Origin: a virus
Taxonomy: Duplodnaviria > Caudoviricetes
Length of the DNA: 58,092 nucleotides
Strand: one strand, 5' to 3'
Virus record (IMG/VR): IMGVR_UViG_3300047585_000006
Coordinates: 1 to 58,092 of that record
Position 1 is the first letter of the stretch, and every line of letters starts with the position of its first letter. This document shows, one piece after another, positions 5,089-37,096 of this stretch. The notes under the pieces were generated by a model. It made no database searches. It was not told the DNA's origin and saw nothing but the letters and a program-made list of their open reading frames with translations. Position numbers and translations under genes: made by a program.

Positions 5089-5164
5089 TGGTGGACCGTG
5101 CTGGCATCGAACCAGCAACCTCTCGCTTGCAAGGCGAGTGCTCTCCCAATTGAGCTAACGGCCC
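5089..5164 (-). tRNA. tRNA-Ala(UGC)
   Basis: 76-nt cloverleaf GGGCCGTTAGCTCAATTGG...CTCGC-CTTGCAA-GCGAG...GTTCGA...ACGGTCCACCA; G3.U70 pair; encoded CCA. Confidence 0.97.
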
Positions 5165-32991: not shown

Positions 32992-33044
32992 CCTTAATAG
33001 AGAATATGAAAACGGAGGGTGATTAAGGCACCCTCCATCTTCAT
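32992..33044 (-). promoter_or_regulatory. hairpin with loop complementary to the RBS region (putative pseudoknot)
   Basis: ATGAAGATGGAGGGTG-CCTTAAT-CACCCTCCGTTTTCAT...ATTAAGG-AG. Confidence 0.75.
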
Positions 33045-33052
33045 GACACAAC

Positions 33053-35912
33053 CTAGCTAATAGCTGCAATTTGTTACTCGCCTTGCGGCGGGATAAGACA
33101 TTTCTGCTTACCTCTCATAGTTTATCATTTCCTATGAGATCAGACTATCGCATCACACTTTCGTGTGTTCTCTCGCTTAGTCGTTCAGGCTGCCTTGCGG
33201 CTTGCCCCTTGTTGGCATTTCAGCGTCCAAGTCAATCAGAGAGAATTTATACCGCCCCATTGTATTAAGGCGGCGTCAATCTGTCGCATACGGATGGTGG
33301 TATCAGGACCAAGAGAGGTCGTGAAATGCACCCGATACGATGTCCCACAAATTCAGATCAACAACCCGGACAGACGATTATCCGGGGATCAGCCCTTCAG
33401 GATCAGCAACAGTCGGTTCAGCATTCTGCGGGTGTTACCTAGACTGTTAGTAAGGGTTAGTCATTTCTGCTAACCTCTCATACTTACTTTTCGTATGAGA
33501 TCGGACTATTGCATCGCCTTACGGCGTCTTCTCGCTTAGTCTCTCAGCGTACCTTTCGGCTTCGCCCTCGTTGGCATTTCAGCGTTCGAGTCAATCAGAG
33601 AAGATTTTACATCGTCCAGTTTGTTAAACGATGTTGCACTTGATGTTTCGCCAATCGCCGTCACCGTAGGTGGTGTCGTTCTGGGCACCCAGATTGATTG
33701 AGAAGATTCCGTCCTTACCGAAAATGTAAGTGCGGAGTGCCGTCAGACCAGTGACGCCCTTGTAGTTCGAGGTCTTCGTTACAAGGTTCGTCTGGAAGAA
33801 ATGAACTCCGGTTGAAGGCAGTTCAATCACTTCCTCAAGGTCAACGCTGACCAGTTCGTCCATCTTGGCTTGGCCCACCGGAGTGTGCTTCAAGATGTCG
33901 ATTGGAGAGTCGTTGCTGTTATCAGCAAGCACGTCACCCAGAGCGAACGGGTGTATGTAATTGTGTTTGGGTTAAATCGGAAGATTTCCGAACCCTACAT
34001 CACTGTAGGTACGCTCTCATTGTCACCAATGAGTTCAGACTCTATCTTGACTTCTTGCGAAGTCTCTTGCGTATTAGTCGTTAGAGATGACCCACGTTTG
34101 TTCAGTGTTTGCATTTTCCCCAGCAATTCTTTTCGTTTCGCTGCGAGAGTTTCGTCAAAACCGTTGTTGTGCGGAAGCCTGATATACTGAAGGGCTATAT
34201 TCGCCTGCTCTTGTTTGATTACCAGATACGGTAGAATCCCCAAGAGCAACTGCTCACTGTTGGTTCGTCCTTTTGGACGCCAGCCATAAGCAATCTTGTG
34301 TTTCAGATTTGCACGACGGTGATGATAGTATTGTCCACCAAAGTGCTGTACGAGCCACTCCATCAAATCGAGATTCGTATTTGTGACTTCGATACGAATC
34401 GCAGTTGAATCATAAGGACTGCCGTTACTCGACAACCCCTTATGGTGGTAGATACTGAAAGTGCCTTCACCATCAAACATTCCGGCCAGATACGACCAAT
34501 ACACCTTGTCAGGTGTTTTCATAGGTTCTTTCCTCGGTATTTTCTGCTTCGATTCTAATCTAACAGATGTTCACCGATATAGCAAGATTTTTTAACGTTG
34601 GAGCCATACTCTACGCATGTGCTGCGTAGGCTTTGGTGTTAACCCCAACGAATGCTTTGGATGCTTCGTCAAACGGACGGATCGAGCGACCTGCCATCGA
34701 CTGGACAGAGTTACGAATCTGGCTCAGAGACAGTGCAGTGAAGCTGGCCGTGGTCGAAGCAGCAAGCTGCACGAGCACGGAAGCGTCAATGCTGGACGCA
34801 CCGTCGGCGGTTGCACGCACAAGTGCGGACAGGGACTCGCCCAGACGGTAAGACATTTCCTTCGCAACGTTCTCGACGGTGTTGTCAATCGTGGTAGCGA
34901 GAGACAGAGACGAGAAGTTCGCGTAATCTGCGTACTCACCAATGGTCGCGGTGGTAGTCAGAACGCTGATGGACAGAGACGATCCCACAGTCCCTTCCGT
35001 AGTCGGGTTCGTGTTCTGGGCCAGAGGGACGTACATAAACCAATTGTGTTTTGGGTTTAAGGCAGAAAGCCCCCTAGTTCACACTAGGGTCGCTCTACAT
35101 ATCACTATGCAGTTCAGACTCTATCTTTACGACACTGGCGTGTCGATGTTTGACGTATTAGTCGTTGGGGATTCCACATCTTCATCGTACTGGTGGAGAC
35201 TTTTCATTTTCTCCCACAGTTGATAACGTCGTTCAGGATTTTCAACACCTGTCATACGAACGTATTCAAGAGCCGTCACTGCCTGCTCTTGTTTAATTAA
35301 CAGGTATGGTAGGATTCCAAGAAGAAAGGCTTCTACCTTCTTGTGACCCCCTAGGCAAGACCATTTGAAGCATTGTCTTTTCCCTAGTTTTCCGAGAGAG
35401 ACTTCATAGAAATCTCCACCGAAATACCGAACCATCCATCGCATCAACCGCTGAGACGTATTGATTACTGAAATCTTAAGATTGTAATTGTAGTAAGGCG
35501 TGCCTATTTTAGTTTCAGCACAAACCCTACTGATACAAATACATCCTTCGCAATCAACCGCCATCGCTGCCATAGCGAGTTTGGTTTTATCCTGTGTCAT
35601 TATCATGATGTGGTCTTTCCTCCGTCTTGTCTACATTATAGATATTAACGGATATAGTCAAATTTATTTTTAAGTACGGGACTATCATGTAATCTCGTAC
35701 TGGTTACCAGACTTCATGGGGAGGTCGAGGCGTTCCGAACAACGTACGAACGGAGTGTTAGCCTTCAAATTCTCCCTGAATCGCTTATCGTAGTACTTCC
35801 ACCACGATGATTCTTCTGCGGAAATCGAACTTCTCCCAACGTCTGTTTACGGCAAAGTAACCGTGGATTGGGGGAGGTTGGACAACTGATTGCCCGCAGG
35901 CGAAAATGACAT
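33053..35912 (-). CDS. major capsid protein (N4-gp56-like), 7 exons: 35912-35860, 35799-35692, 35040-34642, 33957-33627, 33428-33380, 33345-33268, 33066-33053; 343 aa
   Basis: Follows the scaffold gene; exons total 1032 nt and join in frame: MSFSPAGNQLSNLPQSTV/KYYDKRFRENLK...QYEM/FMYVPL...FVGV/IHPF...CNIV/QNAEP...IPGW/TSYRVHF...DAAS/AIS*. Confidence 0.9.
33067..33267 (-). mobile_element. group I intron 6, no ORF, 201 nt
   Basis: P1 GCCGCCU/GGGCGGU; P3 UUCUCUC/GAGAGAA; P7 GACUA/UAGUC; ends AAUUG. Confidence 0.92.
33346..33379 (-). other. 34-nt core-less mini-intron (intron 5)
   Basis: P1 CCCGGAU/GUCCGGG; P10 GUCU/GGAC; terminal G; removal restores T|GG Trp and the frame. Confidence 0.8.
33429..33626 (-). 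mobile_element. group I intron 4, no ORF, 198 nt
   Basis: P1 ACAUCGUU/GACGAUGU; P10 CUG/CAG; P3 UCUUCUC/GAGAAGA; P7 GACUA/UAGUC; terminal G. Confidence 0.92.
33958..34641 (-). mobile_element. group I intron 3 with LAGLIDADG ORF, 684 nt, ends in A
   Basis: P1 CGUUGGGGU/GCUCCAACG; P10 GUAUG/CAUAC; P3 UCUUGC/GCAAGA; P7 GACU/AGUC. Confidence 0.9.
33995..34522 (-). CDS. intron-encoded LAGLIDADG endonuclease
   Basis: YLAGMFDGEGTF; ILPYLVIKQEQA. Confidence 0.95.
   Translation of the reverse strand: MKTPDKVYWSYLAGMFDGEGTFSIYHHKGLSSNGSPYDSTAIRIEVTNTNLDLMEWLVQHFGGQYYHHRRANLKHKIAYGWRPKGRTNSEQLLLGILPYLVIKQEQANIALQYIRLPHNNGFDETLAAKRKELLGKMQTLNKRGSSLTTNTQETSQEVKIESELIGDNESVPTVM
35041..35691 (-). mobile_element. 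group I intron 2 with LAGLIDADG ORF, 651 nt
   Basis: P1 GUACGAGAU/GUCCCGUAC (one mismatch); P10 UACAUGA/UUAUGUA; P3 UUUGAC/GUCAAA; P7 GACU/AGUC; ends ACAAUUG. Confidence 0.9.
35127..35606 (-). CDS. intron-encoded LAGLIDADG endonuclease
   Basis: MAAMAVDCEGCI (divergent motif); ILPYLLIKQEQA shared with the intron 3 ORF. Confidence 0.88.
   Translation of the reverse strand: MIMTQDKTKLAMAAMAVDCEGCICISRVCAETKIGTPYYNYNLKISVINTSQRLMRWMVRYFGGDFYEVSLGKLGKRQCFKWSCLGGHKKVEAFLLGILPYLLIKQEQAVTALEYVRMTGVENPERRYQLWEKMKSLHQYDEDVESPTTNTSNIDTPVS
35800..35859 (-). other. 60-nt core-less mini-intron (intron 1)
   Basis: P1 ACGGU/GCCGU; P10 UACUUU/GAAGUA; terminal G; contains an in-frame TAA. Confidence 0.75.
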
Positions 35913-35935
35913 TGTATTAACCTTTCAAATCATGA

Positions 35936-37096
35936 CTATCGACGGATGCCCATCTCCGCACGTTTGTGTGCGGCCTCAGACTCTAGTCGGTTGACGAGAG
36001 CAACGAATTTCGGGTCTTTCAATTTGGCCCGATAAACGTCAGAGGGGAGCTTGTCGATGTCAGCAAGAGTCACAGAATGGCCATCGACCGGAACGTTAGG
36101 TCCGGCGGCTGATGCGACTGAGGCATTCAGACCAGATGGTACGTGACTATGTCGCTTTACTTGCGGCGGCTCTACCGTGCCCAATCCGGGGGCGGCGGCT
36201 GCTGGAGTCTGCGATTTCGACTCCGGTTCCACGGTAACGACTGGCAGTTCCACTACAGGAACTTTAGGCGTTACAGATGCCTGTTGCACTACAGGGATGA
36301 CCTCAAGCAATCCAGCTTGGGCCAACGTGTCAAACGCGGTCTTGAAATTTGCAATGGTGGGAGCGTAATTACGCTTCGCCATCCACCGAGTTACTGCATC
36401 TCGGTTCGCCGGAGAGTCGTAGTACCCATCGGCTAGATTTACAAACTCAACATAATTCTCAACGGCACGTTGCTGGGCGATGAACTTACTCGTATCGTTC
36501 AGCGTACGGGCCAGAACTTCTGGCTTCACTCCGAAGGCCGACTCAACAATCAAGTCGCGGGCTTCAGCAGCAGTCTCGGGATTAGTCAACTTCTGAGACA
36601 GTGCGAAGCGTTCTTCGGATGTTAGATCGCGGGATTTGAACTCCGCGATGTTCTGGAACTTCTCGGCATCGTCCTTCGGTTCGTCGGAACCAAACGCCTT
36701 CTCGCGGGACATCTTCCGCATCTGGCGAACGGCCTGTTCCTGATTCTTAATCAGCTTTTCGAGCTTCTCAGCTTCCGTGCGATAGACAATGACTTGCTTG
36801 CCGCCCATAGGACGACCGTCTTCATCGCAAAGCTGGTACTCGTAACGCTGCTCCGGCAATTCTGCGGGAGCCGCTGGGGGTGTCGGCGGAACGACTGCGG
36901 CCACTGGAGCATTCTTGGCAACGAGTCCTGTGGGATCGTTCTCAAGTGCGGGTGCGTCGGGATCGGTCCCGGCGAGAACTGCGGCAATCTTGTCTTCGAC
37001 CAACTTCAATTCTGCGGCGATGCGGGCCTTCTCTGCGGCCACGGCTTCGTCATTCAGACCTTTGGCAGTCTGTGGTACTGCGGTAGTGGTGCTCAT
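35936..37096 (-). CDS. putative capsid scaffolding protein
   Basis: Between portal and MCP; helical, Pro/Ala linker, charged C-terminal helix. Confidence 0.7.
   Translation of the reverse strand: MSTTTAVPQTAKGLNDEAVAAEKARIAAELKLVEDKIAAVLAGTDPDAPALENDPTGLVAKNAPVAAVVPPTPPAAPAELPEQRYEYQLCDEDGRPMGGKQVIVYRTEAEKLEKLIKNQEQAVRQMRKMSREKAFGSDEPKDDAEKFQNIAEFKSRDLTSEERFALSQKLTNPETAAEARDLIVESAFGVKPEVLARTLNDTSKFIAQQRAVENYVEFVNLADGYYDSPANRDAVTRWMAKRNYAPTIANFKTAFDTLAQAGLLEVIPVVQQASVTPKVPVVELPVVTVEPESKSQTPAAAAPGLGTVEPPQVKRHSHVPSGLNASVASAAGPNVPVDGHSVTLADIDKLPSDVYRAKLKDPKFVALVNRLESEAAHKRAEMGIRR

Follow-up and report, generated by a model that had tools for sequence, protein, structure and literature searches.

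Recurrent terminal adenosine in endonuclease-bearing group I introns of a phage capsid gene

A major capsid gene in seven exons

The window analysed here is the whole of a 58,092-base IMG/VR virus record (IMGVR_UViG_3300047585_000006; estimated completeness 60%), and its nearest named relative is Tunturiibacter phage Tunturi_3, a podovirus from tundra soil with an Acidobacteriota host. The major head protein gene of Tunturi_3 (P0001) is an uninterrupted 1032 nucleotides (nt), and the word "intron" is absent from the accessible part of the Tunturi virus paper (PMC11924767). Using tblastn, the whole of this protein was recovered from the window in pieces, on the minus strand between 35912 and 33053, where six inserts split the major capsid gene, namely four group I introns from two families and two mini-introns that lack a ribozyme core. 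Our subject is intron 3 (34641-33958, 684 nt; minus strand, as are all gene features of the window given below), an insert that starts UAACACC, ends CAAUUA, contains a LAGLIDADG open reading frame (ORF) and is delimited by exon alignment to the Tunturi_3 protein and by its core helices. Its last nucleotide is A. A terminal G is near-universal in group I introns, and textbooks hold it essential for exon ligation. Intron 2 (35691-35041, 651 nt) belongs to the same family, ends in G and serves as an internal comparator.

The junctions were refined one by one after the tblastn search, except that intron 5 was read from sequence. This gives exons at 35912-35860, 35799-35692, 35040-34642, 33957-33627, 33428-33380, 33345-33268 and 33066-33053. 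With all six inserts removed, the seven exons add up to 1032 nt, which read as 343 codons without an internal stop, closed by a stop codon, and the product aligns gap-free with the Tunturi_3 protein at 278 of 343 identical residues. Neither the capsid region nor intron 3 has a match among GenBank phages by megablast or blastn.

The 3′ end and the fold of intron 3

The Tunturi_3 protein match breaks off at ...KAFVGV (34641) and resumes with IHPFALGD... (33956). We fetched 80 related capsid loci from viral contigs, of which 78 read straight through ...G-V|I-H-P-F and two have an intron at the same place. Intron 2 terminates as ...AACCCAAAACACAAUUG| at 35041 and intron 3 as ...AACCCAAACACAAUUA| at 33958, a T on the plus strand. 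Every frame-keeping split was then scored against the reference protein, and three registers of intron 3 came out equal (GT|C, GTT|A and GTTA|T, with A, C and A as the last intron base); none of the registers that preserve the protein gives a terminal G. The closest upstream G (+20 nt) breaks the frame, and the closest downstream G loses the invariant I-H-P. Intron 3 therefore ends without the terminal guanosine (omega-G) expected of a group I intron, as the first-pass annotation had proposed, although that annotation missed that the reading frame alone leaves a 1-nt ambiguity between A and C.

The C would be the last base if both splice sites lay one nucleotide further 3′, so that exon 3 ends GGGGUU, exon 4 starts AUACAC and the protein is unchanged. 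In the three same-site introns known at that stage GTT|ATA and GT|C ATA do receive equal scores, and GUAUGGCUCC, the continuous guide helix, can accommodate the ligated product of either register. What decides between the two is P9.0, the pairing of the two bases before the omega position with the joining segment J7/9, together with the introns of a neighbouring site. With C at the end, the bases before omega would be U-A and no P9.0 could form, whereas the A register always forms it, in three covarying states. The neighbouring site, I-H|P, shares the UA|C ending, and there the Pro codon comes wholly from the 3′ exon, which leaves a single register, with A as its last base. Furthermore, in the alignment with the homologous tail of intron 2 this A falls opposite the terminal G, and most uninterrupted relatives encode the Val in question by GUC, as the A register yields. 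We regard the shifted sites as very unlikely, and even if they were real intron 3 would still have no terminal G. The register is thus settled on A, and the 3′ splice site stands where it had first been placed, in agreement with exon alignment, P9.0 and P10. The A at 33958 is the lone nucleotide between P9.0 and P10 and hence occupies the omega position.

That intron 3 is a group I intron is borne out by P1 and by P3, P4, P7 and P9, which follow one another in canonical order and are backed by covariation. P1 consists of 9 bp between the exon strand CGUUGGGGU (34642-34650) and the internal guide GCUCCAACG (34596-34604), with the 5′ splice site after U34642 in a U.G wobble, a design that recurs in all same-site and neighbouring-site homologues. 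Immediately 5′ of this part of the guide, GUAUG (34605-34609) pairs with CAUAC, the first 5 nt of exon 4 (33953-33957), to form the P10 of the first-pass annotation, contiguous with P1. P3 joins UCUUGC (34582-34587) to GCAAGA (34065-34070) and P4 joins UCGGUG (34572-34577) to UACCGA (34534-34539); across 32 family introns they are paired in 191/192 and 188/192 cells, respectively, with several compensatory pair types in both.

In P7, A(C)GACU (34076-34081) faces AGUCU (34037-34041), with a bulged C before G34079, which pairs with C34038 as the guanosine-binding G-C pair. The combination A(C)GACU/AGUCU, that is the canonical bulge and G-C pair, is the same in introns 2 and 3, as noted earlier, and invariant in 28 of 28 aligned introns; in two further members (L410 and L439) the outer P7 pair is G-C in place of A-U and the bulge is A in place of C, with the guanosine-binding pair retained. 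Directly before the 3′ strand of P7 lies J8/7 (AAGAUAG, 34042-34048), preceded by a P8 hairpin read from sequence (GACUUC-GCAA-GAAGUC, 34049-34064), in place of which relatives have other self-complementary sequence. On the other side of P7, A34035 and A34034 of J7/9 (GAAC, 34033-34036) pair with U33959 and U33960 as P9.0. The hairpins P9 (UCAUUG-GUGA-CAAUGA, 34017-34032) and P9.1 (CCUACA-GUGA-UGUAGG, 33994-34009) show compensatory change at 6/6 pairs each and are paired in 100% and 98.8% of cells, and an optional P9.2 (UCGGAA-AUC-UUCCGA, 33977-33991), also read from sequence, is found only in some relatives. The structure alignment covers 28 of 34 family introns (omitted are L012, L031, L040, L067_q189, L008_q44 and L141_q31). 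Over the whole of it 99.6% of cells are paired, a value reached by none of 500 shuffles, and displacing the partners by 1-3 columns lowers it to 28-42%.

The LAGLIDADG homing-endonuclease ORF of intron 3 (33995-34522; 175 aa plus stop) overlaps P7, the 3′ strand of P3, P8, P9 and P9.1 with its last ~90 nt, and its residues 12-72 match Pfam LAGLIDADG_1 at 26.5 bits against a cut-off of 23.1. The ORF of intron 2 has no Pfam match at E 0.01, yet it aligns with the family ORFs.

The terminal base among related introns

A 16-nt core word common to introns 2 and 3 retrieved 67 viral loci, to which the capsid loci were added. In total, 58 distinct introns had both exon flanks aligned, and after setting aside three unreliable junctions (L021_q26, L010_q29 and L069_q176) the terminal base was A in 10/55 and G in 45/55. 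One family with LAGLIDADG-type ORFs accounts for 34 of the 58. At the V|I site of intron 3, all six introns end in A: besides the window, the divergent homologues L114/L054, L151/L154, L397, L406 and L407 end UA|CAU, the last three having been found by a pattern that permits A or G as the last base. Both L114 (AAUUA|CAUUC) and L151 (AAGUA|CAUAC) have clearly diverged from intron 3 of the window. Seven nt downstream, at I-H|P, 9/9 family introns (L010, L018, L021, L067, L410, L420, L421, L439 and the L016 group, four contigs with one sequence) end UA|CCU in a unique register, and the sole G-ender at this site, L431, is from the other, small ORF-less intron family. Two further sites hold A-enders, namely K-A|Q (L008 and L141), where the alternative register gives C at -1 and U at omega, and Y|E (L012 and L103), where the register is unique and the same-site relatives L024, L005, L100, L008_q58 and L143 end in G.

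To date, this amounts to 19 distinct omega-A introns at four insertion sites in more than a dozen metagenomes; the family also has 24 G-enders, and A is the last base in about a third of the members found. A maximum likelihood tree was computed for 33 family introns trimmed of their last 3 nt, and the V|I and I-H|P introns cluster together in it (Shimodaira-Hasegawa-like approximate likelihood ratio test, SH-aLRT, 89). The tree needs four changes at omega, and the branches with SH-aLRT of at least 95 force at least three of them. Taken as a comparison of sequences, this indicates that the terminal A of intron 3 is inherited and not a sequencing error, and that omega-A is to be seen as a trait of the whole intron family, a point that had escaped the first-pass annotation.

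Wider scans yielded the following. A junction pattern restricted to A found 7 loci in viral contigs, five of them chance matches and two already known. A scan of metagenomes with A or G allowed at omega gave at least 118 chance matches, none of those listed encoding the capsid junction, and a scan of genome contigs with the 16-nt core gave at least 120 matches, none of those listed being a family member, and hence no link to a host. Three contigs of metagenome-assembled genomes (L298:4418-4466, L303 and L339; Acidobacteriaceae / Terracidiphilus) share a conserved stretch of ~33 nt, ...CCACAACTTTCGGCGC followed by the 16-nt probe word, that does not belong to any intron of the family.

The first-pass annotation had allowed for a single-base error, in which case, or if the A were a rare variant of the sample, the real phage would have G. 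The sole read-level check bearing on this used contigs of the probable source run, X1, and is not independent of the assembly (only assembled contigs were compared, for the source run and for the RNA libraries alike): the Logan contig shows 0 differences over 33000-36000 and has the same base at 33958, with no alternative letter there at a 10% threshold. The homologues are independent of it: five divergent same-site and nine neighbouring-site introns from other metagenomes also end in A, which makes 6/6 and 9/9 at the two sites, and A recurs in two further lineages. An error is refuted in practice, and we give it a negligible probability. Deamination of the A to inosine in the RNA (A-to-I), so that the ribozyme would see a G-like base, is an idea only; inosine can replace guanosine in group I reactions, and the bacterial tRNA adenosine deaminase edits a few mRNAs. 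The contexts of the terminal A (UUA|CAU, UUA|CCU, AUA|CAA and UUA|GAA) differ, however, and share no editing motif, and we hold such editing to be just as remote.

What brackets the A was compared across the family. In P9.0, the dinucleotide that precedes omega pairs with J7/9 positions 2 and 3 in 19/19 omega-A introns (10/10 and 7/7 scored; L021 and the L016 group read from sequence). In the first ten its states are UU/AA in six, GU/AC in two and AU/AU in two, where UU goes with GAAC, GU with GACC and AU with GAUC. The omega-G introns pair in 22/24, all as UU/AA (GAAC), and the other 2/24 are without P9.0. On the exon side, P10 contiguous with P1 measures 8, 8, 5, 3, 5, 8, 4, 1, 5 and 2 bp, and 5, 5, 5, 4, 3, 5, 7 and 3 bp, in 18 omega-A introns, and L114 shows a compensatory change, its guide GAAUG facing the exon CAUUC.

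No core column separates A- from G-enders, either in the 3′ domain (6 vs 22 sequences) or in the 5′ core (10 vs 24), which upholds the earlier observation that no compensating change is visible. The only columns that do are those of the terminal base, of the exon bases following it and of one optional hairpin; the UCGGUG/UACCGA type of P4 occurs in 10/10 A-enders but also in 9/24 G-enders. Intron 3 thus has what marks a natural omega-A intron, a terminal A beside an otherwise canonical G-binding site.

The capsid gene holds further inserts, and across relatives more than 15 distinct intron sites were counted in it, an unusually high load for a phage gene. Intron 4 (33626-33429, 198 nt) and intron 5 (33267-33067, 201 nt) are ORF-less, G-ending elements of ~200 nt from a second family with tails ...GUAACA...G, and reach only 14.5 and 15.9 bits on the Rfam group I model. 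Intron 5 is located 14 nt ahead of the stop codon, and its removal restores the C-terminus A-A-S-A-I-S as in Tunturi_3. In one relative, an intron of the small-core type at D-Y|A-N (L151:2406-3025) has an ORF that looks HNH-type by eye (C-x-x-C motifs), not LAGLIDADG. In the probable source run, low-depth contigs (depth 2-8) of related variants match 33937-33982 and 34864-34940 with ~10% difference and continue into different sequence, so one sample appears to contain several arrangements of capsid-gene introns.

Mini-introns of 33-98 nt without a core lie at about nine sites in these capsid genes. The window has two, mini-intron A (35859-35800, 60 nt) and mini-intron B (33379-33346, 34 nt), whose removal restores the reading frame exactly, and others were seen in L008, L019, L022, L033, L034, L043, L048, L063, L071, L088, L093, L103, L140, L143, L149, L151 and more. 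Their design is a P1 hairpin of 6-12 bp, a contiguous P10 of 4-9 bp and a G-ending tail with no P3-P9 core; U at -1 and a terminal G were found in 20/20 mini-introns measured (17 loci). The short inserts in exons 1 and 5 were at first read as translational bypass sites, a reading dropped in view of the P1, P10 and terminal-G design and of the homologues. Mini-introns would need a ribozyme core acting in trans or some other route of removal; we know of no described equivalent, and no literature search was aimed at one.

Proposed splicing and known systems

Taken together, we think it probable that the capsid gene of this Tunturi_3-like phage has in intron 3 a working group I intron that carries a homing endonuclease and whose terminal nucleotide is heritably A. 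The sequences show the A with its conservation and recurrence, the clamp described below with its covariation, and the unchanged G site; that intron 3 splices, how fast and with what benefit is what we infer. Step 1 would be ordinary, with exogenous guanosine in the unchanged P7 pocket attacking after U34642. In step 2, the 3′ splice site would be set mainly by a two-sided clamp and not by docking of omega-G: on one side P9.0, in which the two bases before omega pair with J7/9, and on the other P10, in which the first bases of exon 4 pair with the guide immediately beside P1. The lone A between them would be presented to the active site, and exon ligation would still occur, probably more slowly. 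Reactions that depend on the terminal G, namely hydrolysis at the 3′ splice site and formation of full-length circles, would be suppressed, which would favour ligated capsid mRNA. The first-pass annotation had suggested that slow or assisted ligation could limit capsid synthesis.

RNA libraries bear on the sister intron. In the peat RNA library of run X22, one contig of 317 nt with adapter sequence on either side is 100% identical to the window and has depth 43.8. It connects 35041 with 35691, the last to the first base of intron 2 as in a full-length circle, and so fixes the ends of that intron and suggests that intron 2, with its omega-G, is catalytically active in nature. Two contigs from soil RNA libraries X19 and X20, from a ~95% identical relative, join all exons, with GUC AUA at the intron 3 junction; since they show GGC in place of the GGG of intron-bearing alleles, they may come from an intron-free relative.

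Several points weigh against our reading. Changing the terminal G of the Tetrahymena intron to A reportedly blocks exon ligation. The contrast in P10, with a median of 5 bp in the 18 A-enders (range 1-8) against 0 in the 24 G-enders of the family, is only a trend, since no more than four insertion sites underlie it and shared ancestry confounds it; introns of the Y|E site have the same P10 of 8-9 bp whether they end in A or in G. Intron 3 scores 28.9 bits on the Rfam model RF00028 (Intron_gpI) in a permissive search (E 1.6e-4), short of the gathering cut-off of 50, because of its long ORF insertion and divergent 5′ half; intron 2 reaches 26.5 bits against the same 50, and at the gathering threshold Rfam finds only tRNA in the window (a single gene at 5092-5164, minus strand, 66.8 bits). 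As for the RNA, the circle of intron 2 is one contig from a library in which DNA is not excludable, and none of the RNA-library contigs attests splicing of intron 3, X22 lying outside it and X19 and X20 coming from the possibly intron-free relative. Finally, in the accessible part of an IStron screen every alternative 3′ site used ended in G (PMC13521648).

A helper could be required for the omega-A introns, whether the LAGLIDADG protein in a maturase role or some host factor, and in the extreme case these introns would sit in defective genomes. General statements in the accessible parts of two papers hold omega-G to be normally required for step 2 (PMC6545197, PMC8146996), and every omega-A intron examined has an intact LAGLIDADG-type ORF; G-ending relatives keep the same kind of ORF intact, however, so it is not specific to A-enders. 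The defective-genome form faces the fact that compensatory changes maintain exons, P1, P10, P9.0 and core helices in A-enders sampled from over a dozen metagenomes, which is not expected of dead genes. We consider a need for a helper unlikely, and it would be compatible with the clamp-based ligation proposed above.

A bolder version of that proposal, which we put forward tentatively as less probable than its being false, is that step 2 in this family needs no terminal G at all and the P9.0-P10 clamp alone fixes the 3′ site. G would then have changed to A at least three times and become fixed at two capsid sites because A stops the G-dependent side reactions (3′ splice-site hydrolysis and full-length circles) that waste capsid pre-mRNA, and the mini-introns would reflect cores acting in trans on P1-P10 substrates. 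The family supplies natural matched pairs with A or G at omega, some at the same site, with an identical guanosine pocket and with P9.0 and P10 kept by compensatory change. With short transcripts, such pairs make it testable what share omega-G has, against P9.0 plus P10, in the choice of the 3′ site and in the chemistry of step 2. For annotation, these capsid genes come in up to seven pieces, and finders that require a terminal G or the Rfam threshold will miss or misplace the junctions.

Omega-A introns are rare but known, as stated in the first-pass annotation, from hexacoral mitochondria; the case is ND5-717 (sea anemones and mushroom corals). According to the accessible text of PMC6545197, its exons are perfectly ligated in vivo despite the missing omega-G, and that of PMC8146996 suggests for it what is proposed here, slower ligation and loss of the terminal-G reactions. 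The likeness is in the last intron nucleotide, A instead of G. ND5-717 is mitochondrial, obligatory, vertically inherited and very large, with genes in P8, without a homing endonuclease and partly removed by back-splicing, whereas the phage family is small (~620-770 nt), optional, phage-borne and endonuclease-bearing, and has A and G versions among close relatives, some at the same insertion site; the two were compared by description. A group I intron that is self-splicing and lacks the canonical omega-G has reportedly been found in the Coxiella burnetii gene for 23S rRNA, which would be a precedent from the bacterial world that the first-pass annotation did not mention. There it is a single case in an rRNA gene, unlike the present family in a protein-coding phage gene with its repeated G/A changes.

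Group I introns in phage structural genes end, to our knowledge, in G. With those canonical introns the present ones share homing endonucleases, presumably self-splicing, and the interruption of essential phage genes, sometimes several times in one gene. Examples in the accessible parts of the literature are the three group I introns of Twort orf142 (PMC10136302) and the introns in capsid and tail genes of Cluster J mycobacteriophages (PMC3706429). The capsid gene of the window differs in its four full introns plus two mini-introns, and its intron family in that about a third of the members end in A. Literature searches on phage capsid-gene introns or omega G found no phage omega-A intron, with the proviso that the Greek letter is unsearchable and a report could be missed, and PMC2532722 holds nothing on omega. 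New here are three things: the setting is a phage, close relatives show repeated changes between G and A, and comparison places the A between P9.0 and P10; the family of intron 3 is thus a new and recurrent phage example of the rare omega-A introns already known.

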